A stretch of DNA of 64,000 bases from an uncultured Actinomycetota bacterium (lineage in GTDB: Bacteria; Actinomycetota; Thermoleophilia; RBG-16-64-13): positions 127,245 to 191,244 of the forward strand of contig CAWCLH010000020.1 in NCBI GenBank assembly GCA_963796315.1, in the 5' to 3' direction. Below are positions 5,149 through 64,000 of this stretch, one piece after another. The number at the start of each line of letters is the position of its first letter. The stretch's first letter is position 1. The position numbers and the translations under genes were made by a program. The notes beneath the pieces were generated by a model. It made no database searches and had not been told where the DNA came from. It worked only from the letters and a program-made list of their open reading frames with translations.

Positions 5149-5149
5149 G

Positions 5150-9981: not shown

Positions 9982-11009
9982 GCGGACCCTACCTGCTGGC
10001 CATCGAGACCTCCTGCGACGACACCGCGGCCGCCGTGCTGGACGCGGAGGGTCACGTGCTCTCGTCGGTGTCGCACTCGCAGGACCTGATCCACGAGAAG
10101 TACGGGGGCGTGGTGCCCGAGGTGGCCAGCCGAGCGCACGTGGAGCGGGCCACGGCGGTGGTCCGCGAGGCGGTGGCGGGGGCCGGCCTCCAGATGGGTG
10201 ACCTGGGGCGGGTGGCGGTGACGGTGGGGCCGGGCCTGATCGGCGCGCTGCTGGTCGGCCTGATGACGGCCAAGGCCATCGCGTGGTCCCGCCGGCTTCC
10301 CCTCACCCCGGTCCACCACCTCCACGGCCATCTCGCCGCCGTCTGGCTGACCGAGCCGGGGGTCGGCTTCCCCCACGTCACCCTGATCGCCTCCGGCGGT
10401 CACACCAGCCTGGTCCGGGTCGACGGCCCGGGCACGTTCCGGGTGCTGGGCCAGACCATGGACGACGCCGCCGGCGAGGCGATGGACAAGGGCGCCCGCC
10501 TCCTGGGCCTGGGCTACCCGGGCGGCAGGGAGCTGGATCGGTTGGCCGAGGACGGCGATCCGGGGGCGTTCTCCTTCCCGGTGGCCCTTCGCAAGCCCGG
10601 GAACCTGGACTTCTCGTTCTCGGGGCTCAAGACGGCGCTCTACTACGTGCTGCGGGACATGACGCCCGACGAGCGGCGGGCAGCGGCGCGGCCGACCTGG
10701 CCGCCGCCTACCGGGCGGCGGCGGTCGAGGCGCTCGTATCGAAGCTGTTCGCCGCCGCCCGCGCGGAAGGGGTGGGCACGGTGGCCGTCGCCGGCGGCGT
10801 GGCCGCCAACTCGCTGCTGCGTCGGCGCCTCGAGGCCGAGGGAGCCGGAGGCGGGGTACCGCGTGGTGGTTCCCCCGGTGCGGTACTGCACCGACAACGC
10901 GGCGATGATCGGGGCGGCGGCGCTGGCCGGCCCGCAGTTGCCCTTCCCCGATTACCTGGGCCTCGAGGCGTCGGCCTCACTCGCCTTGGGCCAGTTGCCC
11001 GCCTGGTGA
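9978..11009 (+). CDS. tsaD: tRNA N6-adenosine threonylcarbamoyltransferase TsaD (Kae1/Gcp); frameshifted near 10690
   Basis: VSGPYLLAIETSCDDTAAAVL...SRAHVE...HHLHGHLAAVWL...GGHTSLV...VAVAGGVAANS are the characteristic TsaD motifs. Confidence 0.85.
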   Translation: MSGPYLLAIETSCDDTAAAVLDAEGHVLSSVSHSQDLIHEKYGGVVPEVASRAHVERATAVVREAVAGAGLQMGDLGRVAVTVGPGLIGALLVGLMTAKAIAWSRRLPLTPVHHLHGHLAAVWLTEPGVGFPHVTLIASGGHTSLVRVDGPGTFRVLGQTMDDAAGEAMDKGARLLGLGYPGGRELDRLAEDGDPGAFSFPVALRKPGNLDFSFSGLKTALYYVLRDMTPDERRAAARPTWPPPTGRRRSRRSYRSCSPPPARKGWARWPSPAAWPPTRCCVGASRPREPEAGYRVVVPPVRYCTDNAAMIGAAALAGPQLPFPDYLGLEASASLALGQLPAW

Positions 11010-11080
11010 GTCTGGTCTAGCCCGCCCGAAGCGGATCCACCTGTTCCGTCGCCGACCTGTTTGGCACTCTCCTCCCGCGT

Positions 11081-11108
11081 TTGACAATCCGCTGCGAGCC
11101 GGTATCAT
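11081..11108 (+). promoter_or_regulatory. Sigma-A-type promoter for groES-groEL (-35 TTGACA 11081-11086, 16-nt spacer, -10 TATCAT 11103-11108)
   Basis: Near-consensus hexamers by sequence. CIRCE lies immediately downstream. Confidence 0.45.
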
Positions 11109-11118
11109 AGGCGGAGGT

Positions 11119-11145
11119 TTGGCACTCCCCGTCAGAGAGTGCCAA
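11119..11145 (+). promoter_or_regulatory. CIRCE (HrcA operator) inverted repeat TTGGCACTC-N9-GAGTGCCAA
   Basis: Perfect 9-bp inverted repeat with a 9-nt spacer, 65 nt upstream of groES. A second half-site-like copy (TTGGCACTC) sits at 11061-11069. Confidence 0.7.
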
Positions 11146-11210
11146 GAGAAGAAGGAAGCATCTGCCTGCGGGCAGCACCGGTCAACAGTATCTTGGAAGG
11201 AGGGTTGTGC

Positions 11211-13194
<1,984 letters not shown>

Positions 13195-13251
13195 GCATGA
13201 GCCCCGACAGGCTCTTGGCGGCGGGTCTCGGGAGAGACGCGCCGCGCGGAC

Positions 13252-13277
13252 GGCGGGCGGCCTTCGGGCCGCCCGCC
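13252..13277 (+). terminator. Stem-loop downstream of groEL (GGCGGGCGGCC-TTCG-GGCCGCCCGCC); possible terminator
   Basis: Perfect 11-bp inverted repeat about 58 nt after the groEL stop. There is no clear U-tract. Confidence 0.35.
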
Positions 13278-13497
13278 GTCGTTCATCGACGAGGGCCGGC
13301 GGTGTTGCCGACCGATGGCGCCGGGCAGGTGCTGTACACTTGACCGGCTACCAGCGTCGCAGGTGGGGCCCGTCCCCACCTTCTTGGTCTCGAGGGTCGT
13401 CGGTCGTTTGATACCGCCCATTCGCGGTAATCGTGAAGGCGGTCGGGTGGCGCCGTTCGGCGCGGTCCCGACGACGTCCGGCAGAAAGGAGCTGTGG

Positions 13498-13953
13498 ATG
13501 AACGAGCAGGCGGAGAAGGCCTTCAAGGAGATGCTGGACATCTCCACGGACCTGGACAAGGCCGTCCTCTTTCGGGGCGAACAGGTCGAGGCCTCCAACT
13601 TCCCGGAGACGTTGCGGGGAGCCATGGTGGCGAAGGCCCAGGAATTGGCCAAGCTGGGCGATCAGCACGCGACGGACATGGGCTCCTCGCCCTTGACGCA
13701 GCTGATGGTCGAGACCGGCGCGGGCATGGTCTTCCTGGTCCGGGAAGCCGGTGCCGGTGGGATGGGCGTGCTGGCCACGGGCAAGAAGGACAGCCGGATC
13801 GGGTTGGTGTTCTACGACATGAAGACCTGCATCCGGGACGCGCAGGAAGAGGAGACGGGCGACGTGGTGATCCCGTCCGCCGAGCCGACCCCGGCGCCGG
13901 AGGCCGAGCCGTCGACCGACGCCGGTACGCAAGGGGAAGAGGTGACGGAATGA
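13498..13953 (+). CDS. Hypothetical protein, possibly roadblock/LC7-like
   Basis: ATG preceded by AAAGGAG. 151 aa with an acidic C-terminal tail. Only weak fold-level resemblance. Confidence 0.3.
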   Translation: MNEQAEKAFKEMLDISTDLDKAVLFRGEQVEASNFPETLRGAMVAKAQELAKLGDQHATDMGSSPLTQLMVETGAGMVFLVREAGAGGMGVLATGKKDSRIGLVFYDMKTCIRDAQEEETGDVVIPSAEPTPAPEAEPSTDAGTQGEEVTE

Positions 13954-14165
13954 AGCGACTCTTGAAGGGTTTCGGTCTGTTCTCCCTGCTGGCCTCTGCC
14001 GGGGCGGGCGCCTACTACTTCTTCTTCATGCGGGAGAAACGTCCCCAGGTGGAGCTCTACTTCGACGACGGCTCGATGCTGGCGTTGCAGGGTTCCTCGC
14101 CCGAAGCCGCCCCGTTCTTGAGCGCGGCGGACGACATCCTGGCCAAGAGCCCGGTGATGCCCTGA
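13950..14165 (+). CDS. Small membrane-anchored hypothetical protein
   Basis: MKRLLKGFGLFSLLASAGAGAYYFFFM.. The ATG overlaps the preceding stop. Confidence 0.3.
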   Translation: MKRLLKGFGLFSLLASAGAGAYYFFFMREKRPQVELYFDDGSMLALQGSSPEAAPFLSAADDILAKSPVMP

Positions 14166-14211
14166 TCATCCGTTCGATGCCGGACACAGCGGTGAGCGGG
14201 TCGTTGGGGGC

Positions 14212-15596
14212 TTGACCCCGGAGTTCACGACGACGCGTCCTGGAGCGCTCGCTGGCGCGCGGAGGGGATTTCGCGGAGCTCTTCGCGGAGGACCGCCGCT
14301 CGTTCTCGCTGCGGCTGGAGGACAGACGCATCGAGGATGTCGTCCTCGGGCGCCGACCGGGGAGCCTCCATCCGCCTCGTGCGGGGCGACACCACCTCCT
14401 TCGGCTACGCGGACTCGCTGGACGAGGAGGCGCTGCTGGCACTGGCCGACCGCCTGAGCGCCAGCATGGCAGAGGCGGCTTCTCTGCCCGCCTCGGCGGC
14501 GCTCGTGCGCTTGGCGCCGGTCGGTCTGGTGCGGGTGGATCCGGAGACCGTGGCGGCGCCGGACAAGGCGGGAGTGCTTCGTCTGGCCGACGAGGTCGGC
14601 CCGCGCGCGGTCTCCCGAGGTGCGCCAGGTCGCGGCCAGCTACTCGGAAGGGCGGCAGCAGGTACTGGTGGCGAACTCTCGGGGCACCTTCGCCCGGGAC
14701 GACCGCACCCGCGTGGTGCTGGGCCTGACGGTGGTCGCCCAGAGAGAGGGCGTCATCCAGACCGGTCGGGAGACGCTGGCCCACCTGGGCGGGTACGAGC
14801 TGATCCAGGAAGCGGACATCCCCGCCTTCGCCGAAGACGTGGCCGACAAGGCGCTGATCATGCTGGGAGCGATTCCGTCGCCGTCGGGCCGCATGCCGGT
14901 GGTCCTGGCCGGCGGCTTTGGCGGCGTGCTCTTCCACGAGGCGGTGGGTCACGGCCTGGAGGCGGACTTCATCGTCAAGCGCACCAGCATCTGGGAAGGC
15001 CGCCTGGGCGAGCGGGTGGCCGCGGACTTCGTCACGGCTTACGACGACGGCGTGACGCGCCGGCATGTGGGGCAGCGGCCTCGTCGACGACGAGGGCACC
15101 CCCACGGAGAAGACCCGGGTGGTGGACGCCGGCGTCCTCAGCGGCTACCTGGTCGACCTGCTGCGTGGGGACAAACTGGGGATGGCCTCGACCGGGAACG
15201 GCCGGCGGCAGAGCTACCGCCACCTGCCCTATCCGCGCATGACCAACACCTACTTCGCGCCGGGCACCGGCTCGGCCGGTCGACCTGATCGCCGACACGC
15301 CTCGGGCCTTCTACGCCAAGAGTCTGGCCGGCGGCCAGGTGGATCCGGCCACGGGCGATTTCGTGTTCGGCGTGTCGGAGGGCTACCTGATCGAGGACGG
15401 GCGGATCGGCCCGCCGGTCCGCGGTGCCACCCTGATCGGGAACGGTGCCGAGGTGCTGCAGAACATCGATGCCATCGCGGACGACCTGGACCTGAAGGCG
15501 GGCATGTGCGGCAAGGAGGGTCAGTCGGTGCCGGTGGGGACCGGGCAACCTACCCTGCGTCTGCGGGAACTCACCGTCGGAGGGACGGCGGTGTGA
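14212..15596 (+). CDS. tldD: Metalloprotease TldD; multiple frameshifts
   Basis: ..GDFAELFAEDRRSFSLRLEDRRIEDV...IRLVRGDTTSFGYADSLDEEAL...VLAGGFGGVLFHEAVGHGLEADF...GNGRRQSYRHLPYPRMTNTYF...GMCGKEGQSVPVGTGQPTLRL is the TldD signature (HEAVGH). Confidence 0.8.
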
Positions 15597-16969
15597 TGGG
15601 CCAGGACCTGCTTCGTTCTGGCCCGCGACGTGCTGGATCGGGCCGCCCGCCTGCCTGGAGAGGTGGAGGTCTATGCCGAGCACGGGCAGACCACCTCCAT
15701 CAAGGTCTACGCCGGCGCGGTGGAGTCCCTCGTGACCGGCGAACCCCAAGGGGTAGGCGTGCGCTACCTGGACGGCGGCCGCCGAGGATACGCCTACACG
15801 GGCGACCTCAGTCCGGACGCGCTTGATCGCGTCGTGGCCCAAGCGGCCGAGAATGCCTCCGCATCCGACGTGGACGAATTCGTGGGCCTGCCCGAGCGCC
15901 GCCGCCGGCTACCCCGCGATCGAGGGGCTGTGGCGCCCGGGACTGGCGGCGGCGAGCACGGAGCAGAAGATCGCGCTTGCGCTGGAGGCGGAGCGCGTGG
16001 CCCTTCCGTGCCGGAGATCGAGACCGTGGAGGAGAGCACGTACTCGGACGCGGCCGGGCGGGCGGCCATCGTCTCCAGCCGCGGGGTCGAGGCCTACGGG
16101 GAGCAGACCTTCTGCTACGTCTACGCCTCGGCCCACGCCCGCCGGGGGGAGGACGTCCAGACCGCCCTGGGGTTCGAGGCCGGCCGGGAGCCTGCGGAGC
16201 TGGACGCCGAGGCCGCCGGGACGAGAGGCGGGGGTGCGCGCGGCCGGCCTCCTGGGGGCGAGCCAGTGTCCCAGCGAACGCACCACGATCGTCTTCGACC
16301 GGGAGGTGGCCGCCGCGGTGCTCAGCGTCATCGCCCAGGCGCTCTCCGCGGACGCGGTGCAGAAGGGACGGTCCCTCTTCGCCGGCCGCCTGGGCCAGAC
16401 GATCGCCGCCTCCGGCTTCAGCCTGGTGGACGACGGCCTTCATCCGGAGGGGCATGGCCACGTCGCCCTTCGACGACGAGGGCGTACCCCGGCAGCGCAC
16501 GCCCCTGATCGAGGAGGGCGTGCTGCGCGCGTTCCTCCACACCACGTACACGGCCCGCAAGGAAGGGGGCGCGACCCGGTCCACGGGCAACGCCTCTCGC
16601 GGCTCCTACCGCTCCCCGCCGGGCGTGTCCACATCGAATCTCGTCGTGCAGAACGGGCGGGGAAGCCTGGACGACCTCTTCGCCCGCGTGGGCCGCGGTC
16701 TCTACGTGGTCAGCATCACCGGGCTGCATTCGGGCGCCAACCCGGTCAGCGGCGAGTTCTCCGTGGGAGCGACCGGCCACCTGATCGAGGGCGGGAGTCG
16801 AGGCCGGCCGGTGCGCGAGGTGACCATCGCCTCCGATCTCGTGTCGCTGCTGCAGCAGGTCCAGGACGCCGCCGGCGACGCCCGCTGGGTGCCGCTCTAC
16901 GGGAGCGTCCTGACCCCGTCGCTCGCCATCGGCGGCGTGACGGTGTCCGGAAGCTCGGCCGCCCGATGA
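15596..16969 (+). CDS. pmbA: Metalloprotease PmbA/TldE; multiple frameshifts
   Basis: ATG overlapping the tldD TGA. ..EVEVYAEHGQTTSIKVYAGAVESL...GVGVRYLDGGRRGYAYTGD...SVGATGHLIEGGSRGRPVREVTIASDLVSLLQQV... is TldE/PmbA family. Confidence 0.8.
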
Positions 16970-30018: not shown

Positions 30019-31254
30019 TCAGCCCTGCGGCCGTTCGCCCCTGAGGAATGCGCGCACGCGGCCGGCGACGATGGCCGCGTCTCCGGCCACCCCCATGAAG
30101 AGGGAGGACTTTCGCGTGCGCAAGAAGGGGATGCCTACGAAGAAGAGTCCGGGGACCACCCTGCTGACGCCGTCTCGCTGGAGCGGGAACCCGAACTCGT
30201 CGAACGCGTCGGGCCATGGTAGCCAGGAGCGGTAGTCCGGGCGGTAGCCGCCCGCGAAGATGACGGCTCCGAAGTCGGAGAGATCCAGCGACTCCGGTGG
30301 GTGGTCGGCAAGGGGCGGCGGCAGCTCCAGGGACGGGAGATCGAGTCCGCGCTCGGCTGCGAACCGCTCGATCAGGTCCATCAGTTCGCGCAGGCGCTGG
30401 TCCCCCCAGGCGGCGCTCTCCTCGAGATCCGGCGCGAAGTGGGCCTGACCGTCCTCCGCCCCCAGGAAATGCCCGGCCAGGGTGACTCCCAGCGCCTGGA
30501 GAGTGCGCAGGTTCAGGTCGTGACCGCCGTCGTGGCCGGTGGCTATGGGGTTGGCGGCTAGGCGCGCCGCCGGCGAGGGGAGAGCCTCGACCGTCTGCGC
30601 GAAGAACCCCACGTTGGCCAGCCACCACACGATGTCGTGGTCGCCCAGGCGGCGCGGCACCCAGGGCGCCTTGCCACAGGCCAGCACCACCTCGCGCCCC
30701 GCTACGCGTAGGTCCTCGGCGATCTGCGCGCCGGACTGGCCGCTGCCCACCACCAGCACCTTGCCCGGCGGCAGGGCGGCTTCATTGCGATAGGCGTCCA
30801 CGTCCAGCTGGACAAGGTCCTGAGGGAGGGAGTCGGCGGCCGCCGGCCGGTGTGGCCGTTGGAAGGCGCCGGTGGCCGGCACCAGGGCACGGCTGCTCAG
30901 ATCGCCGGCCGTGGTACGCAGGATGAAGCCGCCGCCGGGCCGCGATTCCACCCCGTCGACCGAGACGCCCTCGTGAACGGGCGCTCCGAAACTGCGGGCA
31001 TAGTCCTCCAACGTGGCGACGATCTGGTCTCGCGGCATGAAGCCGTCGGGGTCGGGGCCCGAGTAGGGGCGGCCGGGCAGCCTCACCGTCCAGTTGGGGG
31101 TGACCAAGCAGAAGCTATCCCAGCGGCGCCGCCACGTCTCGGCCACGCTCCCGCGCTCGAGCACGACGTGCTCGACTCCGGCGGCGGAGAGCTCATGACT
31201 GAGGGCCAAGCCGGCCTGTCCGGCTCCGACGATGGCGACGTCGACCTGCTCCAT
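30019..31254 (-). CDS. FAD/NAD(P)-binding flavin-containing monooxygenase-like oxidoreductase (CzcO-like)
   Basis: MEQVDVAIVGAGQAGLALS (GxGxxG), a second dinucleotide motif LVVGSGQSGAQIAEDL. 411 aa, intact frame. Confidence 0.75.
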   Translation of the reverse strand: MEQVDVAIVGAGQAGLALSHELSAAGVEHVVLERGSVAETWRRRWDSFCLVTPNWTVRLPGRPYSGPDPDGFMPRDQIVATLEDYARSFGAPVHEGVSVDGVESRPGGGFILRTTAGDLSSRALVPATGAFQRPHRPAAADSLPQDLVQLDVDAYRNEAALPPGKVLVVGSGQSGAQIAEDLRVAGREVVLACGKAPWVPRRLGDHDIVWWLANVGFFAQTVEALPSPAARLAANPIATGHDGGHDLNLRTLQALGVTLAGHFLGAEDGQAHFAPDLEESAAWGDQRLRELMDLIERFAAERGLDLPSLELPPPLADHPPESLDLSDFGAVIFAGGYRPDYRSWLPWPDAFDEFGFPLQRDGVSRVVPGLFFVGIPFLRTRKSSLFMGVAGDAAIVAGRVRAFLRGERPQG

Positions 31255-31299
31255 CGGCTACCCGGCTTCCACGCCGGCGGTCGCCAGTCGACCGCGAGG

Positions 31300-44744: not shown

Positions 44745-46613
44745 TTAGGGAAGGGTGAAGACGTAGACCGTGTTATCCGTGGGGATGCCCGAAGCCTGCG
44801 CCGCCCCGGTGGGTGGGCCGCCCCAGCCGTTGGGGAAGCAGATGTACTCCTTGCCGTTGACCGCGTAGACGACCGGGTTCCCGTGCCAACCGGACGTACC
44901 GTAGAAGGTGTAGAGTTCCTTGCCGCTGTCCGAGTCGAGGATCATCATCTTGCGATCGTGTCCTCCGGTGATGACGAGACCGGAGGCGGTGCACGTGATA
45001 CTGCAGATCAGCGGCAACGAGGTGCGGGTCTCCCACTGCACCTTCTTGCCGGTCACGTCCACGGCGGTGACGTGACCGTAGGAGGATTGCGGCTCCGAGA
45101 AACCGCCCCAGTAGAACTCACCGGCTATGAATTGTTGGTCCACCTTGGTGTGCTTGACCGGCATCTCGGTCAGGGGGATGAAGCAGAGCTTACGTTCAGG
45201 GTCGTAGGCTTCGTTCGCCCACTCCTTGCCGCCCATGTTGCCCGGCGCCACCACGGTGCCATCCTTGGTCGGAATCAGCCGAGGGTCGGCCTTGGGCACC
45301 CCGTCCGGGCTCACGGTACCCCAGTTGACAAGATGCGCCACCTTGAGCGCGTATACCGGCTTACCGTTCGTCCGATCGAGCGTATAGAAGTAGCCGTTCT
45401 TGGCCGAGAACATCACCACTTTGCGCTGTTGCCCGTCGATGCTCAGGTCGTCGATGATCGGGGAGGTGGTGCAGTCCAGGTCCCAGACGTCATGGGGGAC
45501 GGTCTGGTAGTACCACTTGAGCTTGCCGGTATTCAGGTCGAGGGAGACCACGCAGGTTGCGTAGAGGTTGAGGCCGGCCCGCTGGTCGCCGTTTATGTCG
45601 GGTCCGGCGTTGCCGATCCCGCAGAAGATGGCGTTCATGGCCGGGTCGTACGAGCAGGTCATCCAGTTCGGGCATCCGCCGGTCTTCCAGGAGTCGCCCT
45701 GCCAGGTGTCGTGTCCTGGTTCTCCGGGGCCGGGGATGGTGTACCAGCGCCAGATCTGCTTGCCGGTGTTGATGTCGTAACAGTCGATGAATCCGCGCAC
45801 ACCGTACTCCCCGCCGGAGATGCCCACGATGACCTTGTTGCCGATCACCTGAGGGGCCAGCGTGGCACTGTATCCCAGGCCTACGTCGGCCAACCGCGTA
45901 TCCCAGACCAGTTTGCCCGTGCGGCTGTCGAGGGCGACCAGGCGTGCGTCGAGCGTGGCCATGACCACCTTGCCGGCGCCGATGCCCACCCCCCGATTGG
46001 GAGCGTCGCAGCAGAGGATCGGGTGGGTGCCCTGCAGTTTATGGGCGTAACGCCAGAACGGCTTGCCGGTGACCGCGTCCACCGCAAGGACGTTGTTCCA
46101 CGGTGTGGAGAAGTACATGACGCCGTCGACCACGATGGGTGAGGCCTCGAAGGCGTTGTGCAGGCCGGTATCCAGGGACCAGGCCAACTTGAGGCTGTTC
46201 ACGTTGTCCTTGTTGATCTGGGTGAGGGGGCTGTAGCGCTGGGACTTGTAGGTGCGTCCGTAGAGCAGCCAGTTGTCGCCGTCGGCCTCCGCGTTCATCT
46301 GGCGGGAGGCCAAGTCGCTGGGGAGGGCAGGCGCCTCTTTGATGAGGAAGGAATCGAACCCGAGGGGCGGGAGTTGAGGATTCGCCACCTCCGCCGATTC
46401 CGTTGGCACCGGCGCGCCGCTCTGGGTGGTCGGCGGTAGGCCGATTCGGTAAGCGGCCGCGGGAACTGCCGACCCGGCGGTGGGGGTGCTGCCGGAGGAA
46501 TCGGCGCAACCGCCCGCGAACACGGCGGCGAGAAGGACGATGCCCATGCAGCCGGCGACGGTGCGGGTGCTGCTCTTTGCTATCAGGGGGGATCGCATCG
46601 CTCTCTCCTTCAT
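44745..46613 (-). CDS. PQQ-dependent alcohol (methanol/ethanol) dehydrogenase, quinoprotein 8-bladed propeller; predicted lipoprotein signal; XoxF-like D-L-D motif
   Basis: Signal peptide with ..LAAVFAGGCADS. Adjacent Cys pair HPILCCDAPNRG. W-motif repeats. ..TVPHDVWDLDCTTSP places an Asp two residues after the catalytic Asp, as in lanthanide-dependent XoxF/PedH. 622 aa, intact. Confidence 0.85.
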   Translation of the reverse strand: MKERAMRSPLIAKSSTRTVAGCMGIVLLAAVFAGGCADSSGSTPTAGSAVPAAAYRIGLPPTTQSGAPVPTESAEVANPQLPPLGFDSFLIKEAPALPSDLASRQMNAEADGDNWLLYGRTYKSQRYSPLTQINKDNVNSLKLAWSLDTGLHNAFEASPIVVDGVMYFSTPWNNVLAVDAVTGKPFWRYAHKLQGTHPILCCDAPNRGVGIGAGKVVMATLDARLVALDSRTGKLVWDTRLADVGLGYSATLAPQVIGNKVIVGISGGEYGVRGFIDCYDINTGKQIWRWYTIPGPGEPGHDTWQGDSWKTGGCPNWMTCSYDPAMNAIFCGIGNAGPDINGDQRAGLNLYATCVVSLDLNTGKLKWYYQTVPHDVWDLDCTTSPIIDDLSIDGQQRKVVMFSAKNGYFYTLDRTNGKPVYALKVAHLVNWGTVSPDGVPKADPRLIPTKDGTVVAPGNMGGKEWANEAYDPERKLCFIPLTEMPVKHTKVDQQFIAGEFYWGGFSEPQSSYGHVTAVDVTGKKVQWETRTSLPLICSITCTASGLVITGGHDRKMMILDSDSGKELYTFYGTSGWHGNPVVYAVNGKEYICFPNGWGGPPTGAAQASGIPTDNTVYVFTLP

Positions 46614-46622
46614 CGCGCGGGC

Positions 46623-48134
46623 CTACGCCGGACACGCGTCGTCACCAACCAAGCGGACAGCGCCAGGATCACGGACGACGACCAGGCCGATCGGGATCAC
46701 CAGGTATGGGCTGAGAGGGTGGGAACGAGGTCCGTAGATACTCGCCGCCGTGACGTCGACCGACACCGAGCCCACCATGAAGGGGTGCACCATGCAGTAG
46801 TACATGCTGGTGCCGGGCGCGTCGAAGCGCCGGGAGAAGCTATCTCCCGGCGACAGTGGGAGCGAGTTCCAGCTGCCGGCGGGCTGCTGCGAAGCCGGTT
46901 TGCTTGGGTCCCAGTTGTTCTCGGTGCTGGTGTGGGAGGCCTTGTCCTTGTTGACCCAGACCACCGTCGTCCCCGGGAGCACGACCAGGTCCTTGGGGTG
47001 GAAGGCCAAGTCTTTGATGGTGACGTAGACCGTCTGGGACTGCTTCGCGGCGACGGCCACGGGCGCGACTGGGTTGTCGGTGACGGCGCGGGTGGTCGTG
47101 GTCTGGTTCGGCGACACGCCCGGAATGGGAACGTCGACCGCCGTGCGGAGGTCGGGCTGGCCGCCCCGGTTCCGGATGTAGGTGACCAGCCGCCAACGCG
47201 TATCCTCGGAGAGGGGCGTGTGCGACGGCATGAGTTTCCCGGGGACGCCCTTGGTGATGATGGTGAAGAGAGCGGTGTCACTGCCCCCGCCGTAGTACCA
47301 ATCTCGGTCGGACAGCTTGGGTGCGAGCCAGGTGCCGTTGACCTCTCCGCCGTGGCAGTAGAAGCAGTACAGCTTGGCGGCCGACTCGCCGTCGTTCACC
47401 TCCGCTTGGTCGTAGGGCGTATAGGGGTTCTTGAGCGTCTTGACGGCCCCTGTTTCCACGGCGGCCTTCGAGGCCCGATCGAAAAGGCCCGTCACGTAGA
47501 CCGCCAAGGACCAGCGGGCCTCCTCCGTGAGCTTGTCCTTCTGCGGCGGCATGAAGGTGCCGGGGATACCGTTGGAGACGATCTCGAAGTTCCGTCCAGT
47601 GACAGAGTTGCGCGCGGTGAAGTCCGTGGGGCGGGGCCAGACGTAGGGGTCGCCCTTGGCCCAGGACCCGTCACCCTTGCCTTTGTCTCCATGACATGGG
47701 GCGCATTTCTGCAGGTAGTTCGCGCCGGCCATGGCCAGATCGGGAGGTTTGTCGCTGGTCTTCCAGTTCTTGTCCCACTCCCGAGTGGTGTCCAGCGGCT
47801 GAGTCTCCAGAAAGGCCAGGATGTCGTCGAAGCCCGCGCGACTGATGTTGGGGTGGGCGGGCATGGCCGTGCCTGGGAGACCCTTCTCGACGATCGAGAA
47901 GGCCATGTCCGCCGTTTCCTTGACGGCCGTCAGGTTCGCCGGAGGAGGTATGAACGTGGAGTGGGCGGGACCGTCCCCCTCTGCATCCTTGTCGTGGCAG
48001 ATCTCGCACTCGTGCAGGTAGGCATTCTTGCCGGACTGCACGTTTCCCCGCCCACCGCCGTCGAGGCGCCCTGCAGCAGGACAAAGACGGTGAGCGCGAG
48101 GGCCTAAGAGCGGGAGGACAGCGACGGTGCGGCC
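46623..48134 (-). CDS. Triheme c-type cytochrome fused to a C-terminal cupredoxin domain; N-terminal signal region has indels
   Basis: Three CxxCH motifs (CEICH, CAPCH, CFYCH). The C-terminal domain ..TVVWVNKDKASHTSTENNW...YYCMVHPFMVGSVSV has type-1 copper ligands (H, C, H, M). Confidence 0.7.
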   Translation of the reverse strand, partial: GRTVAVLPLLGPRAHRLCPAAGRLDGGGRGNVQSGKNAYLHECEICHDKDAEGDGPAHSTFIPPPANLTAVKETADMAFSIVEKGLPGTAMPAHPNISRAGFDDILAFLETQPLDTTREWDKNWKTSDKPPDLAMAGANYLQKCAPCHGDKGKGDGSWAKGDPYVWPRPTDFTARNSVTGRNFEIVSNGIPGTFMPPQKDKLTEEARWSLAVYVTGLFDRASKAAVETGAVKTLKNPYTPYDQAEVNDGESAAKLYCFYCHGGEVNGTWLAPKLSDRDWYYGGGSDTALFTIITKGVPGKLMPSHTPLSEDTRWRLVTYIRNRGGQPDLRTAVDVPIPGVSPNQTTTTRAVTDNPVAPVAVAAKQSQTVYVTIKDLAFHPKDLVVLPGTTVVWVNKDKASHTSTENNWDPSKPASQQPAGSWNSLPLSPGDSFSRRFDAPGTSMYYCMVHPFMVGSVSVDVTAASIYGPRSHPLSPYLVIPIGLVVVRDPGAVRLVGDDACPA

Positions 48135-50411: not shown

Positions 50412-51994
50412 GTGAGCGACCAGGAGGACCGGTCTGGGCAAGGCGAGGGTCGTCTCGCGCAACCAGCGTCCGACGTTCCAGAGGAGGAACGAGCAAGGGG
50501 GTATTTGAAGGATCGCTATGGTTCGGGCGCTGAGGTCATCACCGGCTTCAGCGGAGTCGTCTACGAGCACGAGGACAGCGCTGCTCGGATCTGGCTTCTC
50601 AGCAGCGTGGTGTGGTTCATCGTGGTCACCACCTTCGGCATCATCATCGCCACCGAACTGGCCATCCCCGAGATGTTTCACGGCATTCCCTGGCTGGTCT
50701 TCAGCCGGGTGCGACCCTGTCACGTGGAGGGCGTGATCTTCGCCTGGCTCACCACGATGTACTGGGGAGCCATCCTGTACTTCAGCCCCGTCTGCTGGGG
50801 ACACGCCGGCTCTGGGGCGAGAACTGGGCTTACTGGTCGGCGTGGGTCTACAACATCACCCTGACCGTCGGCTTCATCGGCATCCTCAGCGGAGGCAGCC
50901 AGGGCCGCGAGTACGCCGAGTTTCCCTGGATCGTGGACGTGTTCATCCTCGGGGTCTTCATCCTCAACGTCGTCCTGTTGGTAGGGACGGTCACGGTCCG
51001 GCACGTGCGTCCGCTGTACGTCAGCATGTGGTGGGCCCTGGCGGCACCGATCTGGGTCTCCGCCTCGATCTTCATCGAGAACGTGGTCTGGCGCCCCAAC
51101 GGGAGCATCTGGGGGGCTCCCTCCGGCAGCCTACCCACCGGTATCCACGACGTCATGATCAACTGGTGGGGGAACCACAACCTCTTCGGACTGTGGCTCA
51201 CTCCGGTGCTGATCGCGGTGACGTACTACTTCGTCCCCCGGATCACCAATACCCCCCTCTACAGCCACACGCTCTCGCTGATCTCGTTCTGGGGCATGAT
51301 CTTCGTGTATGCGGCCGTCGGCGATCACCACCTGCTGCAATCGCCCACGCCCGGATGGCTCAAGACCATCGCCTCGGCCAACAGCGTGTTCATCCTCATA
51401 CCGGTGTTCGCGTTCTTCACCAATGTCTTTCTCACCATGCGAGGACAGTGGGAGAGGTTCTTTAGCAGCCTGCCCCTACGCTATATACTGACCGGCTTTG
51501 TCTTCTACATCCTGGTGAACATCCAGGGCGCCGGCCAGGCCATCCAACCGTTCAACCGAATCATCCACTTTACCTACTTTGTCATCGGGCACTCACACCT
51601 CGCCCTGTTAGGTGGATTCACCATTCTCGGTATGGGAGTCATCTACTACATGTTGCCCCATATACTGGGCAAGCCACCCTATTCCCGAACGCTCGCCGAA
51701 TGGCAATACTGGTTGGTCACCTTCGGTTTTCTGCTGTTCTTCACCTCACTCACCATCGCCGCGTTTATCCAAGGCCAGAGCTGGTTGAACGGCCAGCCCG
51801 AGGTGAACGTGCTTCCGCAGCTGCGTATCTGGAACATCACCCGTCTCATCGCCGGAGTGATGATCTACGCCTCGGCCTGGATCCAGGCGTACAACGTGCT
51901 CATGGTCGTCGTGGTCAACACGAGGGAGCGCGTGGCCCGCAAGACCCGGAACGATGCCCGCTCTGCCCTGAGCACGAGCGGCGTCCGGCCGTGA
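50412..51994 (+). CDS. ccoN: cbb3-type (C-family) heme-copper oxidase subunit I, CcoN; frameshift near 50800
   Basis: GTG after GGAGGGAG. ..IWLLSSVVWFIVVTTFGIIIATELAIPEMFHGIPWLVFSRVRPCHVEGVIFAWLTTMYWGAILY.. matches the CcoN N-terminal helices. Conserved His pairs (..GDHHLLQSP.., ..IGHSHLALLGG..). Confidence 0.8.
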
Positions 51995-52004
51995 GAGGGG
52001 GTGT

Positions 52005-53465
52005 GTGATGGCTCGCGAGTGGTTGCCTGAGTACGAACTCTCGCCTCGCAACTGGGGCACGCACCCTCCCAAGAAGATGATGATGACGCCGCTGATGATC
52101 CTGCTCGGCGGTTTCTACGCCTTCGCGGTGCCGACCTTGGTGGCGGCCTTCTTCCAGCTGATGTTCTTCAGCGCACCGGTATCCAACGAGTGGGCTCCTT
52201 TGGCCGCATCCGCCGAGCGGGGACGGGCGGTCTACGTCTCGAACGGCTGTGTCTACTGCCACAGCGGCTTCAGCCGTCCGCAGGACGTGCGCAACGGCCT
52301 CTACTACCTCTACCCGCGCGTGTCCCTGCCCGGCGACTACGTGACCAGTGACAGCAGTCCCAACGTGTTCGGTACGGCCCGCATCGGTCCCGACCTCAGT
52401 CACGAGAGCGGCTTCCACCCGGACGACTGGCAACGGGCGCACTTCAACGACGCCCGCTTCGTTACGCCCTTCTCCATCATGGCCCGGTTCGACTTCCTCA
52501 ACGACCAGCAGGTGGAGGACCTGATCGCCTATGTGCAGACGTCCGCCGGCAAGAGCGGGCTGGTCAGGTACGCCGGCGAACTGTACATGAAGAAGATCTT
52601 CCTGGCGGCCAACGGGCTCACCGAGCAGGACATCCCCAAAGGCTACACCGCTGACAAGCTGACGCTCAAAGAAGTTCAGATGAAGTACGTGATGAACGCC
52701 CCGGAGGCGCCCAGCGCCACCGTGGACGGACTTCCCTTCCCCGACGTCGTCAACTTGAACGTGGTGGATCGAAGCTACTGGCTGGTCTCCAACCCCATGC
52801 CCCTGACGACGGGGAACCTCATCGAGGGTCGCCGGATCTTCCAGCAGCGCTGCCAAGGCTGCCACGGCCAAGGGGGCGCGGGCAGCAGTGAAGCCGCGCG
52901 GTTCATGCGGCCGCTGCCCGCTGACTTCACCAGCGAGGACGACCAGGCAAACGGCTCGGATGCCGGCCCCGGCGACTTCTACTATCGGGTCCTGCGCGGT
53001 ATTCCGGGCACGGCGATGGAGAACTTCGGTTCTCGGCTGCGCGTCGACGACATCTGGAAGGTCGTCCTCTTCCTCAAGACCATCCCCAACGGGGGACTGC
53101 AGGCCGACCGTGTGCCCACGCCCGACATGTACGTGCAGTGGAAACCGGGCTCGGACATCATGGGTTACGTGCAGAAGCACGCCATCGATCAGAACAAACG
53201 CTTCATCGGACAGGACACTCCCAGTGACACCGACCCCTTCATGCTCGAGGCCAAGCGGGAGTGGGCCGGCATGAACGACAGCGACAGCTTCACCGTGCCC
53301 GGCTACGGAGAGGTCTCGCTGAGCGCGGCCGCCCGGGACATCAAGGCCATCTACGACAACCTACTCAACCAGGGGTGGAGCGACTTCACCGCCCGCGGAG
53401 GCCACCCGGTCCCGCCGGCCGAGCAGAAGACCGCCGCCCCGGATCTGTCCAGGGAGATGCGGTGA
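52005..53465 (+). CDS. ccoO: cbb3 oxidase cytochrome c subunit, CcoO-like monoheme domain fused to a second CcoP-like heme c domain
   Basis: N-terminal TM anchor. ..YVSNGCVYCHSGFSRP...RIGPDLSHESGFHPDDWQRAHFNDARFVTP (CcoO core). Second CxxCH ..QQRCQGCHGQGG... 486 aa, intact. Confidence 0.8.
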   Translation: MMAREWLPEYELSPRNWGTHPPKKMMMTPLMILLGGFYAFAVPTLVAAFFQLMFFSAPVSNEWAPLAASAERGRAVYVSNGCVYCHSGFSRPQDVRNGLYYLYPRVSLPGDYVTSDSSPNVFGTARIGPDLSHESGFHPDDWQRAHFNDARFVTPFSIMARFDFLNDQQVEDLIAYVQTSAGKSGLVRYAGELYMKKIFLAANGLTEQDIPKGYTADKLTLKEVQMKYVMNAPEAPSATVDGLPFPDVVNLNVVDRSYWLVSNPMPLTTGNLIEGRRIFQQRCQGCHGQGGAGSSEAARFMRPLPADFTSEDDQANGSDAGPGDFYYRVLRGIPGTAMENFGSRLRVDDIWKVVLFLKTIPNGGLQADRVPTPDMYVQWKPGSDIMGYVQKHAIDQNKRFIGQDTPSDTDPFMLEAKREWAGMNDSDSFTVPGYGEVSLSAAARDIKAIYDNLLNQGWSDFTARGGHPVPPAEQKTAAPDLSREMR

Positions 53466-53869
53466 TGGCCGCGGAGAGGAGGTGGACCATGCATGATCGA
53501 TCGGGCTGGCGGCTGCTGCTTCCCATCCTCGCCGTAGCGCTCCTCGCGGCGATGGCCGTGGGATGGGCCGGCTGCGGCAGCACGCCCGCCGGCGTCACGG
53601 TCATCAAGATGCAGGGGGTGCGCTTCGTCCCCGCGGAGGTGACCATCAAGAAGGGCACCAAGGTCCGCTGGGTCAACGAGGACAAGACCGCGCACACCTC
53701 GACCTCGGACGACTTCAAGGTGGGCGAGCAGAACCCGCCGACTGCGTGGAACTCGGAACCCCTCAATCCCGGGGACTCCTGGGAGCGGACGTTCGATTCG
53801 ACAGGGGACTTCCCGTTCCACTGCATGGTGCACACCTATATGAAAGGCAAAGTCACGGTGACGGAGTAG
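53464..53869 (+). CDS. Cupredoxin (plastocyanin/amicyanin-like blue copper protein), predicted lipoprotein
   Basis: ..LLAAMAVGWAGCGST (lipobox). ..VRWVNEDKTAHTSTSDDF...FPFHCMVHTYMKGKVTVTE gives the Cu ligands H, C, H, M. Paralogous to the cupredoxin domain at 46623..47000. Confidence 0.75.
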
Positions 53870-56483: not shown

Positions 56484-57059
56484 AGCGTGGCCTACGAGAA
56501 GTTCGACATGGCGAAGCTCGAGCGGTTGAACGACCCGGACCGCTTCGACCTCTTGGACCCCGACCTGATGTGGCAGGCCCTGGGCGAGCCCCAGCCGGCG
56601 GTGATCGTGGACATCGGTGCGGGCACCGGCCTCTTCGCCGGACGCTTCGCGGAGATGACCCCGGGCGCCACCGTCTACGCCGCCGACACCCATCCGACCA
56701 TGGTCGAGTGGATGCAGCAGCAGCGCGCTCCGGCCTACGGCGGGCGCCTGCGCCCGTTGCTGTCGTCGGAGGACACGGTGCCCTTGCCTGACGCCGTCGC
56801 CGATCTCGTGGTGATGCTCAACCTGCATCACGAGTTGGTCTCGCCCGAGGCCAACTACGCCGAAGCAGCCCGTCTGCTGAAGCCCGGAGGGCAACTCCTG
56901 GTAGTCGACTGGGCCCCGGGGGCGGACGGTGGGCCGCCACAGAAGATCCGGGCCTCGGCCGACGAGATCATCCGGTCGGTCTCGTCAGCCGGCTTCGTCG
57001 ACGCCGTCGCGCACCCGGGGCTCTCCAAGCACTCGCTGGTCACCGCGCGCCGGCCATAG
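56484..57059 (+). CDS. Class I SAM-dependent methyltransferase
   Basis: ..PAVIVDIGAGTGLFAGRFAEMTPGATVYAADTHP...LKPGGQLLVVDW. Confidence 0.7.
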   Translation, partial: SVAYEKFDMAKLERLNDPDRFDLLDPDLMWQALGEPQPAVIVDIGAGTGLFAGRFAEMTPGATVYAADTHPTMVEWMQQQRAPAYGGRLRPLLSSEDTVPLPDAVADLVVMLNLHHELVSPEANYAEAARLLKPGGQLLVVDWAPGADGGPPQKIRASADEIIRSVSSAGFVDAVAHPGLSKHSLVTARRP

Positions 57060-57750: not shown

Positions 57751-58388
57751 CTAGCCTTCCGGGCCCAAGATCGCGATGTCGAAGTTGGAGTCGGAGAGGG
57801 CAGGTGCGGTCCCGCTCCACGCGTACGTGTACACCTTACCTTCGTCGGGGAACTCGTGCCCGGATCGAGTGCTGCGGTCGCCCAGCGGACCACGGGTCGC
57901 TACCGATGATGAAAGGCCGGTCGGCTGGCGGGTGACCAGGATCGTCCGACCGGCGACGGGAACTTGAAGTCGATAATGTAGTTGCCGCCGCGGCGTCACG
58001 GGTCAAGACCGGCGCCATGTCGTTCACGTTGTTGAACCAGAAGCTGAGCCGGACGTCCCGGGAAGCAGGATGCGACCGGTACACATGGGCGCCTGCCGCC
58101 ACCTGGGTGCCTGCCGCTCTATGCAGGAAGGTGGCCATCTGACCCCGGTTGACCGGGTTGTCCGGACGATAGGTGAACGTGCCACTGGCTTGGAGAGCCG
58201 ATGGTGACGCCGCTTTCGGCCGCCCACATGATCCCTGCGTAGTGGGTGTGCGTGGTGGGGACGTCGGTGAAGGTCACGGCGGCGAGCGCGGTGACGGGGG
58301 CGAGGACCAAGAGGACGCCGGTGATCAACAGGGCAAGACGTAGCCTTCGCGATGTAGAACGATGGGTGAGACGACCAACCAATCTCAT
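57751..58388 (-). CDS. S-layer-homology (SLH) domain protein with an N-terminal signal/TM anchor; frameshifted
   Basis: MRLVGRLTHRSTSRRLRLALLITGVLLVLAPVTALAAVTFTDVPTTHTHYAGIMWAAESGVT.. (SLH F.DV..H....I.W....G) and, in another frame, ..MATFLHRAAG.. (SLH second half). Confidence 0.45.
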
Positions 58389-58588: not shown

Positions 58589-59996
58589 TCACTCGAGCGG
58601 CTCGCTCATCTTCCGGCGCAGACGCTCCATGCCGTTGATGCGGATGTCCAGGAGCCGCTCGATGCGGGCCTTGGCCTCCAGGCCGCGGGCGGCGCCGGGC
58701 ACGGAGGTGATCACCCCGATGTCCAGGTCCTCGCGCAGCTCGCGCATCACGTTCTCGTCGGACAGGTCCCGCACGCTCACGTCGAGCTTCTCAGCCACAT
58801 ACGCCTTTGCCTCTGGGAGTCGCATCTTGCGGGCGAGCTGCATCCGGGCAACCAGATCTCCGGCTGTGCGGATGCCTCCCATCCCGGAGGCGAGCGCATG
58901 GGCCGCGGGCATCCCGTAGGGATCCCCGGTGCCTACCTATAACCCGTCGCAGCGGGCGATCTCCACCATGGCGACGCTGGCCCGGCTGACGATGTCGATG
59001 GGCGGGCACTCCGCCATGGGCACCCCGCCCACGCCGATACCCACGTTGGGGTGGACGGGGATGGTGGCGGCCTCCCCGCAGGCCTTGCAGAGGGTGACCG
59101 CCCGGGCGATGTTCCACGAGGCCGACCGGCGGGTGTTGGTGTTGACCACCGGCCCGAAGACGTGCGCTCCCGCCTCCTCGCACCAGCTTCACCTGGTCGT
59201 GGGGGTAGAGCCCGGCCAGCCGCCGGCCCTTGTACTCGATCTGACCGTGCATGCCCAGGACGAACTCGGCGGCCATGCCCACCTCGATGGCCAGGTCGGT
59301 GGTGGCGGCCAGCTCCTCCACGGTCTCGAGCGTGGCCAGGAACTCCGCGTCGCCGGCGGAGGCCGTGGTGTCGAAGTTGATGCCGTCGGTGCCCACCTCC
59401 GCCATCTTGCGGGCGACGTAGAGCATGTCGCGCTTCAAGACCTGGGCGGCCTGCTCCTGGGCCTCCCGGGCCTCGGCGATCTTCCCCGCGGGCAGCAGGT
59501 CGGCCGGGTTGCCGAAGGGGCCGTCCGGGCGGGCGTAGAGGGCCAGGTTCGGCATGGCTCCGTAGAAGATGGGCACGATGGTGGAGTGCAGCACGCTCTC
59601 CATGGTCTGCTGTTCCATGGCGATGATCGGCTTGACCGGCTTGTACGAGTAGTCGACCTGGCCGACCTCCATGGTGTCGAAGCCGAAGGCCCGCTCGTAG
59701 ATGCGCACGCCCATCTCCCGGCTGACAGGGACGCCGACGCCGCTGGAGCTCTGCGCCCCGTAGAGCGCGTTGACGCAGCCGTCGTCGGTCAGCACCACCT
59801 CGTGCCCGCGTTCCACGCCACCATACGGCCGGGGGCGGTCATCAACTCGAAGAGGCGGTCCTGCTCCTCCTGGGTGAGCGGGGCGACGTCGCCGGCGACC
59901 ACCGCCTCCTCGACGCCGGCCACGATGTCGCGCCGGATGTCGTCCGCGGTCGCCTCGACGGTCTGGCCGTCGCCCATCCGGGTCAGGTACGTGGTC
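58589..59996 (-). CDS. mtbB: Dimethylamine:corrinoid methyltransferase MtbB-family protein with an in-frame TAG (UAG) codon at the pyrrolysine position; two indel frameshifts elsewhere in the gene
   Basis: Homology runs through three frames: [32 protein letters not shown]...LMTAPGRMV / ..[68 protein letters not shown]...[19 protein letters not shown]...[36 protein letters not shown] / ..[27 protein letters not shown]...[33 protein letters not shown]-[TAG, plus-strand cta at 58937-58939][32 protein letters not shown]...[40 protein letters not shown]... The reading frame is identical on both sides of the TAG, and both flanks carry MtbB-like conserved blocks. Confidence 0.75.
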
Positions 59997-60664
59997 ATGG
60001 GTCCGTCACCTCCTGGTCGCGCGGCGACCAGCTCGAGGGCCTTGGCCACCGCCTCCTGGGCGTCCTCCGCGTACGCGTCGGCGCCGATCTTGTTTGCCCA
60101 ATGCTGGGTGACCACCGCGCCGCCCACCATCGTCTTGACCTGATCGCGGATACCCGCCTTCTTCAAGAGCTTCTCCAGCTGCTTCTGGCCGAGCATGGTG
60201 GTGGTCATCAGGGCGGAACTGCCGACGATGGAGGCGCCGGTCTCCTGGGCCTTCTCCACGAAGGCGGTCACCGGGACGTCCCTGCCCAGGTCGACGACGT
60301 CGAAGCCATAGACCCGGAACAGCGTCGCCACGATCCCCTTGCCGATGTCGTGCACGTCCCCCTCGATGGTCCCCAGCACGGCGATGCCGGCCTTCTTGGC
60401 CTTATCCTCTTCGGGCAGGTGCTGCTCGAGGACGGCGATGGCGGCCGTCATCGCTTCGCTGGCCAGGATGACCTCGGGTAGGAACAGGTGCCCGCGCTCG
60501 AAGCGTTCGCCCACCTGTACCATGCCCGCCCCGTAGCCTCGATCGATCACCATGACCGGGTCGAGCCCCATGGCCATGGCCTCGTGGGCCAGCGCCACCG
60601 CCTGCCGCTCGTCCGCCTCGACGATGGCCGCGGCTGCGGACGCCAGCAGTTCCTCTTCTGTCAT
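59993..60664 (-). CDS. mtbC: Methyltransferase-cognate corrinoid (B12-binding) protein, MtbC/MtaC family
   Basis: ATG at 60664 after GAGGAGG. MTEEELLASAAAAIVEADERQAVALAHEAMAMGLDPVMVIDRGYGAGMVQVGERFERGHLFLPEVILASEAM... (B12-binding-2 cap). ..GTIEGDVHDIGKGIVATLFRVYGFDVVDLGRDVP...GSSALMTTTM...MVGGAVVTQHWANKIGADAY (DxHxxG...SxL...GG cobalamin-binding motifs). A TGA in the +1 frame overlaps the mtbB ATG (ccATGAcc). Confidence 0.8.
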
Positions 60665-60721: not shown

Positions 60722-60910
60722 CTAGCGGAAGGCGGCGATGACGACCCGGCCGACCACGGTCAGGAGGATCGCGGCCGCTACCGTGGCTGCGAAGGCCAGC
60801 AACCCTGGGAGGTGCGTCCAAAGGAGGAGTAGTCCCGCGAACACCAGCGCGCCGGCGACCCATAGCAGGAAGACCACGACCAGACCCAGCAGCAGCGAGG
60901 TGCGCTTCAT
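60722..60910 (-). CDS. Small two-TM membrane protein, hypothetical
   Basis: [62 protein letters not shown]. Confidence 0.3.
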
Positions 60911-61048
60911 GACGTGCCCCTCTCCCGGCGAACTCCCTGTCGGCATCCGTTCTACCCAATCCCGGGCAGCAGGAGCACGCGCGGTCGCTTCTTCGCCGGG
61001 CGCTCCGTCGGCGGTCGCCGTCCGTCCTTTCCGGTACCATACAAGTCT

Positions 61049-64000
<2,952 letters not shown>

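Follow-up and report, generated by a model that had tools for sequence, protein, structure and literature searches.

A probable mtbC-mtbB module of the pyrrolysine-dependent dimethylamine methyltransferase system on a contig from a Thermoleophilia-like actinobacterium

Introduction

In the MtbB family of dimethylamine:corrinoid methyltransferases, the side chain of pyrrolysine (Pyl) binds and orients dimethylamine, and the Co(I) form of the corrinoid protein MtbC is methylated. A second methyltransferase (MT2) moves this methyl group on to a carrier, corrinoid that has been inactivated to Co(II) is re-reduced by a RamA-type enzyme, and the pathway delivers the methyl group to a cofactor, tetrahydrofolate (THF) or coenzyme M (CoM), without releasing formaldehyde for the ribulose monophosphate (RuMP) pathway. 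Here we analyze a 64-kb stretch of contig CAWCLH010000020.1 (positions 127,245 to 191,244) from an uncultured Actinomycetota bacterium (assembly GCA_963796315.1), hereafter the window, and within it a minus-strand gene pair at 58589-60664 in which an mtbC-like gene for a Pyl-type cognate corrinoid protein lies immediately 5' of a full-length mtbB. We consider it likely that this is an ordinary mtbC-mtbB module of the Pyl-dependent dimethylamine methyltransferase system in a Thermoleophilia-like actinobacterium, and that the breaks in its deposited reading frames are assembly errors.

Systems of this kind have been recorded in related bacteria. Ellenbogen et al. (2023) reported that some metagenome-assembled genomes (MAGs) of Actinobacteriota express Pyl-encoding mttB and mtbB (PMC10805028), and among 81 bacterial genomes Guo et al. 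(2022) found two Actinobacteria with pyrrolysyl-tRNA synthetase (PylRS; PMC9630628), so that the system is already known for the phylum. Thermoleophilia isolates are regarded as obligately aerobic, and the class also includes MAGs from anoxic habitats that have other traits (PMC7438021). Corrinoid chemistry is itself not confined to strict anaerobes, the precedent being CmuA/CmuB (PMC3621897).

Results and Discussion

The corrinoid protein and methyltransferase genes

The product of the mtbC-like gene (Table 1) combines a B12-binding_2 cap (PF02607, 68 bits) with a B12-binding Rossmann domain (PF02310, 90 bits) and passes the cutoff of the Pyl-type corrinoid family TIGR02370 (pyl_corrinoid; 252.5 bits against a cutoff of 215.3). 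Its translation contains the motifs DVHDIG (DxHxxG), SAL (SxL), and VGGA (GG), in agreement with an earlier reading of this DNA made without database searches (the sequence-only reading), which had described a cobalamin-binding protein with a cap domain and these motifs. Reading frames for the Pfam scans of the window were taken as stop-free pieces picked by frame analysis of the G+C content at third codon positions (GC3). The three pieces of MtbB, joined and frame-repaired with the in-frame stop written as X, matched the Dimeth_Pyl family (PF09505) at 682 bits (cutoff, 25) over positions 2 to 462 of a 463-position profile, and the frame-repaired translation scored 581 bits against TIGR02368 (cutoff, 369). 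With a TAG codon at the position expected for the family, these matches uphold the assignment of this gene as a Pyl methyltransferase. The best MtbB homologs, every one of them cut off at the TAG, were 77% identical to the window protein, and a sequence search of all PDB chains with MtbB matched no solved structure of the MtbB family.

The closest homolog of the mtbC product, P0122, is 90% identical, has 222 aa, and ends in ELAAARQEVTDR (RQEVTDR). Deleting one C at 60015/60016 of the window gives mtbC the ending ELVAARQEVTDP followed by TGA, for a product with the length and ending of P0122, and this corrected stop overlaps the mtbB start as ATGA. The arrangement that had been proposed, with mtbC directly preceding mtbB on the minus strand and its corrected stop overlapping the mtbB ATG, is thereby recovered. 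The Shine-Dalgarno-like sequence AGGAGGTGA seven nucleotides before the mtbB ATG favors separate initiation of mtbB over a true fusion of the two genes.

The pair stands alone between the core gene uvrA on one side and SLH-domain genes on the other, with no neighboring mttB, mtmB, MT2, transporter, or regulator gene. Just 3' of mtbB (57962-58379, minus strand) come fragments of an SLH-domain protein, broken by frame shifts. Just upstream of mtbC and on the same strand is a small, strongly hydrophobic open reading frame (ORF) of about 62 aa (approximately 60722-60907) with two membrane spans predicted by eye; small unannotated ORFs also accompany mtbB in the related loci L001 and L015. A promoter and terminator scan of 57.8 to 61.2 kb yielded nothing useful.

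The pyrrolysine codon of mtbB

The column holding the in-frame TAG of mtbB is identical in 18 of the 18 related mtbB copies examined, which came from MAGs of Thermoleophilia and other Actinomycetota, one Syntrophomonadaceae MAG, and one Methanomassiliicoccales MAG. The 110 to 115 codons 3' of the TAG are 54 to 84% identical between these relatives and the window, a conservation equal to or greater than that of the upstream part. A match to the Rfam family for the mtbB pyrrolysine insertion sequence (RF02509, PYLIS_2) scores 70.4 bits (gathering threshold, 36; E = 3e-16), part of which may reflect coding conservation, several pairs of the first stem being nonstandard in the alignment. Nearly all of the database MtbB homologs among the matches listed end at 353 residues, where gene callers stopped at the TAG.

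In the window, TAG ends 3 of 36 long ORFs (at 1553, 46625, and 57057), with TGA ending 29 and TAA 4. Like other bacteria that decode Pyl, this organism therefore still uses TAG as a normal stop. Judged from these sequence comparisons, MtbB is most likely translated through the UAG as pyrrolysine.

Frame breaks in the deposited sequence

As deposited, mtbCB contains three 1-nt indels in 2.07 kb, one abolishing the stop of mtbC and the other two shifting the frame of mtbB (Table 1). The deposited mtbC has no stop and reads in frame into the N terminus of mtbB, producing a fused 291-aa ORF (P0121); GC3 in the last mtbC codons is high in the corrected frame and collapses in the fused frame. Conserved genes of the window are interrupted too. 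The uvrA gene (60872-63900) falls into at least five frame pieces in 2.9 kb that align one after another along the UvrA profile (3-68, 68-187, 369-435, 475-675, and 671-923), groEL (11372-13191) falls into at least three in 1.6 kb (profile positions 8-114, 176-221, and 311-540), and ccoN (50415-51991) has one frame shift. The density of indels in mtbCB is no higher than in uvrA or groEL.

Because uvrA, groEL, and ccoN are broken in the same way, we read the three frame problems of mtbCB as most likely being assembly indel errors and not gene decay. The fused ORF P0121 and a truncated CcoN (P0245) are both on record from one 1,327,629-bp NCBI/ENA contig, which places the indels in the deposited assembly. 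We note that tsaB and tsaD (8655-11006) and other conserved genes are likewise split by single-base shifts, and that the indel errors are unevenly spread across the window, the intervals 27.3 to 29.4 kb and 38.5 to 44.7 kb being clean.

Lineage and gene sets of related loci

A scan of genome contigs with exact peptide patterns gave nine loci at 52 to 62% identity, and closer relatives came from protein searches. Phylogenetic placement of MtbB had been suggested as a check on the sequence-only reading, and in a neighbor-joining tree the window MtbB groups with L001-L004 and the Thermoleophilia locus L019, beside MAGs labeled Thermoleophilia or Actinomycetota and apart from archaeal and Firmicutes sequences. 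The nearest named homologs of MtbC (72 to 77% identity) and one homolog of CcoN (74%) are annotated as Thermoleophilia bacterium, and the arrangement tsaE-tsaB-rimI-tsaD-groES-groEL, read from the window translations, is one that we take to fit an actinobacterium. L019, from a 4.6-Mb contig of Thermoleophilia MAG GCA_027493445.1, has the mtbC-mtbB order of the window and an MtbB 72% identical to it; its TAG-containing mtbB, 3' of mtbC at 10663-12060, is uncalled in the record. In L001-L003, mtbB adjoins an SLH-glucosaminidase gene.

The fullest gene set is that of L021, on a 466-kb contig, where a corrinoid gene is followed by mtmB(TAG), a permease gene, mtbC, mtbB(TAG), MT2, tRNA-Pyl (CTA), pylSn, pylSc, pylB, and pylC, and beyond this cassette by a transporter gene, another corrinoid protein gene, and mttB(TAG). 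The L021 MT2 belongs to the MtaA/CmuA family (TIGR01463, 281 bits against a cutoff of 235), and PylSn (TIGR03912), PylSc (TIGR02367), PylB (TIGR03910), and PylC (TIGR03909) each score above their curated cutoffs. Its mtbB has a PYLIS_2 match, its MtbC shares 75% identity with the window protein, and its MtmB is 82 to 85% identical to the MtmB of GCA_027493445.1. At 13195-16842 of this locus, pylT-pylSn-pylSc-pylB-pylC is followed directly by a sodium/solute symporter gene, with no pylD called after pylC. Elsewhere, L014, L017, and L018 carry mttB(TAG), mtbB(TAG), and genes for corrinoid proteins and for proteins of the uroporphyrinogen decarboxylase (URO-D) type, and other relatives have operons of a TetR regulator, mttB(TAG), mtbB(TAG), and a major facilitator superfamily (MFS) transporter, with genes for URO-D proteins or URO-D-corrinoid fusions nearby. 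The gene sets of L021 and these other relatives suggest that the lineage carries the complete canonical Pyl and methyltransferase machinery, and we infer the same for the window's own genome.

Within the window, the absence of a partner methyltransferase and of pyl genes that the sequence-only reading had noted was borne out. Searching the window by tblastn with the MT2, MttB, MtmB, PylSn, PylSc, PylB, and PylC of relatives gave no match (all E > 0.03), as did URO-D-type MT2 queries from L014 and L021 (E > 0.05), and no tRNA-Pyl was found in the 64 kb. No MT2 of the pterin-binding type was seen by eye among all window ORF translations, with no query search made for that type, and no RamA-type activase appeared in the general Pfam lists of the scanned window pieces or related loci, with no RamA-specific search made.

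Aerobic-type neighbors and contig integrity

The remaining features of Table 1 include genes that had been described as hallmarks of aerobic or microaerobic methylotrophy. A pyrroloquinoline quinone (PQQ) dehydrogenase, an oxidase, cupredoxins, and a fusion of 3-hexulose-6-phosphate synthase (HPS) to an RraA-like domain are indeed present, and their more specific descriptions fared less well. Among solved structures, the PQQ enzyme is nearer to a type II quinohemoprotein alcohol dehydrogenase (ADH; 1kv9, 347 bits) than to XoxF (279 bits). CcoN scores 236 bits against the ccoN equivalog (cutoff, 583), far enough below to point to a divergent C-family enzyme with O2 or NO as its putative substrate. 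No 6-phospho-3-hexuloisomerase (PHI) was found beside HPS among the window translations, no profile search for PHI having been made. We also note that the PQQ dehydrogenase has no haem domain, that the cytochrome c-cupredoxin gene comes next to it, and that a WDLD motif seen by eye might mean lanthanide binding. The contig also carries an NADH dehydrogenase (nuo) cluster.

No operon or adjacency links mtbCB to the oxidase, PQQ, cupredoxin, or HPS genes, which lie 5 to 55 kb away. The nearest of these markers is the oxidase cluster, about 5 kb away with unrelated genes between, on the other strand, and HPS is 54 kb off; among eight related contexts, none places mtbB next to a gene for an oxidase, a PQQ enzyme, or HPS. 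We take the oxidase, PQQ, cupredoxin, and HPS genes to belong to the same organism as mtbCB and to reflect facultative or microaerophilic growth, not a dedicated new pathway.

The window opens with an aldehyde:ferredoxin oxidoreductase (AOR) gene, whose product is typical of anaerobic metabolism. In L008, L011, L015, and L016, all Thermoleophilia or Actinomycetota relatives, AOR genes stand directly beside mtbB-mtbC, accompanied by genes for ferredoxin and AsnC regulators; a functional link between AOR and methylamine use is hypothetical. Two other candidates in the window were rejected: a Tmm-like monooxygenase at 30022-31257, which is a flavoprotein of the MSMEG_0569/ArsO type, and an S-adenosylmethionine (SAM) methyltransferase at 56487-57059, considered as the corrinoid-associated CpaM (38 bits against a cutoff of 180).

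The sequence-only reading had also raised the possibility of a chimeric contig, which a check of composition did not bear out. The window has about 69% G+C, the proteins it encodes are recorded from one 1.33-Mb contig, and the tetranucleotide signature of 57 to 61 kb does not stand out (r = 0.975 with the remainder of the window, z = -1.3). On the tetranucleotide and G+C profiles, and with the core gene uvrA flanking the pair, chimerism at the mtb region was rejected. The sole tetranucleotide outlier is the oxidase cluster at 50 to 55 kb (z of about 3; GC of 0.62 against 0.69); membrane-protein composition or an old transfer could explain it, yet CcoN is 74% identical to a Thermoleophilia CcoN.

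Table 1. Coordinates of the mtbC-mtbB pair and of other features in the 64-kb window
Feature	Position	Strand	Details
mtbC-like gene, Pyl-type cognate corrinoid protein	59995..60664	-	ATG 60664-60662; 222 aa after removal of the extra C at 60015/60016
mtbB, dimethylamine:corrinoid methyltransferase	58589..59998	-	ATG 59998-59996, TGA 58591-58589; ~469 residues including Pyl
Shine-Dalgarno-like AGGAGGTGA	60006..60014	-	7 nt 5' of mtbB ATG; perfect; read from sequence
In-frame TAG, read as pyrrolysine codon	58937..58939	-	Context DGL-TAG-VGTGDP
PYLIS_2 match (RF02509)	58840..58939	-	Begins exactly at the TAG
Inferred 1-nt insertion	60015..60016	-	Extra C in CC run; removes mtbC stop; from comparison with P0122
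Inferred 1-nt deletion	59818..59819	-	GGG read as GG; shifts mtbB frame; Gly in all homologs (MV-G-VE)
Inferred 1-nt insertion	59180..59180	-	Extra C; restores mtbB frame; homologs have no residue between KLV and E(E/K)AGAH
PQQ dehydrogenase, methanol/ethanol family	44745-46613	-	TIGR03075, 515 bits (cutoff 480)
Cytochrome c + cupredoxin	46653-48089	-	Pfam Cytochrome_CBB3, Cytochrom_C, Copper-bind
CopD-type copper resistance membrane protein	48.2-50.1 kb	-	Pfam CopD
C-family oxidase	50.4-53.5 kb		COX1 (245 bits) + FixO/cytochrome c
Second cupredoxin	53417-53863		Pfam Cupredoxin_1, Copper-bind
HPS fused to RraA-like domain	3865-5205	-	TIGR03128, 226 bits (cutoff 200); NF005442, 584 vs 593
AOR	2-1552		Window start; 57 kb from mtbCB

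Proposed function and alternative explanations

We propose that the UAG of mtbB would be read as pyrrolysine and that MtbB would bind dimethylamine, methylate the Co(I) corrinoid of MtbC, and release monomethylamine. An MT2 of the URO-D-fold MtaA/CmuA type, with its gene at another site of the chromosome, would move the methyl group to a carrier, most likely THF in a bacterium, for oxidation or biosynthesis, and pylTSBCD and a corrinoid reactivase would be expected elsewhere in the genome. Several points weigh against this account. No pyl genes, MT2, or RamA can be demonstrated for the window's own genome in the 64 kb covered, and the closest MtbB relatives, L001-L003 (77%), also have no adjacent partners. 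The mtbC product falls below the cutoff of the MtbC equivalog NF041607 (244.5 bits against 350), so that the dimethylamine assignment of the corrinoid protein rests on adjacency and overlap with mtbB and not on its own sequence. The identity of the methyl acceptor is one we infer. The second mtbB indel lies outside any homopolymer run, and from the assembled sequence alone the mtbB frameshifts cannot formally be told apart from real mutations.

If those mutations were real, mtbB and the mtbC stop would belong to a decaying pseudogene, and the organism would have lost Pyl decoding. Such decay would fit the three frame defects that the deposited assembly shows within 2.07 kb and a window without pyl genes or MT2, but the essential genes uvrA and groEL break as often or more, the mtb frames are otherwise clean and 77% identical to homologs, and neither the Pyl TAG nor the PYLIS match is damaged, which leaves decay very unlikely. 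Taken at face value, the deposited sequence might instead encode one corrinoid-methyltransferase polypeptide, being stop-free between the genes with a linker-like junction (ARPGGDGP), and corrinoid-methyltransferase fusions are known in relatives (URO-D-corrinoid in L014 and L017). We regard a real fusion as highly improbable: P0122, at 90% identity, is a 222-aa protein in its own right, and removal of one C restores its ending in the window; the perfect AGGAGGTGA precedes the mtbB ATG, GC3 is high in the corrected frame but falls away in the fused one, and the genes are separate in all relatives with the mtbC-mtbB order.

A more ambitious alternative is the suggestion of the sequence-only reading that the locus represents a previously undescribed, oxygen-compatible route by which dimethylamine methyl groups enter aerobic or microaerobic methylotrophy (formaldehyde/RuMP or THF), coupled to a cbb3-type oxidase. 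One contig does carry a C-family oxidase (COX1 and FixO), cupredoxins, a PQQ dehydrogenase (TIGR03075), and HPS (TIGR03128), with no break in composition, and the 74% identity of CcoN to a Thermoleophilia homolog makes the oxidase appear native to the class; bacterial mtxB transcripts are known from oxygenated palsa (PMC10805028), and CmuAB of Methylobacterium is a precedent for aerobic corrinoid/THF methyl transfer (PMC3621897). Set against this are the 5 to 55 kb between the genes with no operon or adjacency link, the eight related contexts in which mtbB is never paired with oxidase, PQQ, or HPS, a corrinoid transfer product that is a methylated cofactor and not formaldehyde, a PQQ enzyme nearer to type II quinohemoprotein ADH than to XoxF, the AOR gene in the window, the low CcoN score, and no PHI seen beside HPS. 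With relatives showing a canonical layout and Actinobacteriota Pyl-mtbB already published, we find the claim of a new route unsupported as first put, and a new oxygen-compatible pathway improbable; nothing in the window is new at the level of enzyme, architecture, or pathway. Respiration-coupled methyl oxidation via the oxidase and nuo genes is conceivable. It is unlikely, if slightly less so than a new pathway, that a Thermoleophilia-type actinobacterium couples Pyl/corrinoid dimethylamine demethylation to respiration ending in a high-affinity C-family oxidase, oxidizing the methyl group microaerobically in place of methanogenesis, acetogenesis, or sulfate reduction; if it did, Pyl-dependent methylamine use would leave the strictly anaerobic world.

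Taken as an ordinary mtbC-mtbB module, the locus adds a clean example of a Pyl-dependent dimethylamine system for Thermoleophilia-like actinobacteria and supports the view from peatland metatranscriptomes that soil and wetland Actinomycetota demethylating methylamines may compete with methylotrophic methanogens. The modest interest that remains is that a Pyl-dependent methylamine methyltransferase demonstrably shares one contig with a haem-copper oxidase in a Thermoleophilia-like organism, which raises the question of the oxygen tolerance of actinobacterial methylamine demethylation. Gene annotations of public MAGs systematically split, mis-call, or miss Pyl genes, as with the fused 291-aa ORF here and the uncalled mtbB of GCA_027493445.1, and surveys will therefore undercount them.

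Comparison with known systems

The MtbB1/MtbC/MtbA system of Methanosarcina barkeri (TIGR02368, NF041607, and NF041608) has a full-length first methyltransferase (MT1) of the same family as that of the window, with a single UAG at the same position, and likewise a cognate corrinoid protein (cap and DxHxxG Rossmann domain) whose gene adjoins the methyltransferase gene. The window differs in having a bacterial host, for which a CoM acceptor cannot be assumed, and in having no MT2. Its MtbB is about 50 to 55% identical to archaeal-type sequences (P0017 and L013), and its corrinoid protein scores below the MtbC cutoff.

The chloromethane:THF pathway of the aerobic Methylobacterium extorquens CM4 (PMC3621897) offers an analogy only: CmuA/CmuB show corrinoid methyl transfer to folate in an oxygen-respiring methylotroph, but they are free of pyrrolysine and differ in MT1 family and in substrate. 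Bacterial Pyl-decoding anaerobes (Desulfitobacterium hafniense, Acetohalobium arabaticum, Bilophila wadsworthia, and the Olavius delta1 symbiont; PMC1976440 and PMC9630628) have split PylSn and PylSc, the form found in every bacterial case, as does the relative L021. In contrast to these anaerobes, the class of the window host has isolates held to be obligate aerobes (PMC7438021), and the contig encodes a C-family haem-copper oxidase.

The mtbB and mttB loci of Actinobacteriota and Thermoleophilia MAGs (Stordalen Mire Bog-752 and others, PMC10805028; L005-L011, L019, and L021), among which the L010 MAG is named bog_752 and matches the genus Bog-752 of that study, differ from the window in that the window pair stands alone between uvrA and SLH genes and has indels in its deposited sequence. 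They share with it the same tree clade, the TAG codon, and a high-GC actinobacterial context, and L019 and L021 also share its mtbC-mtbB order, with MT2 and pylT-pylSn-pylSc-pylB-pylC immediately 3' in L021.

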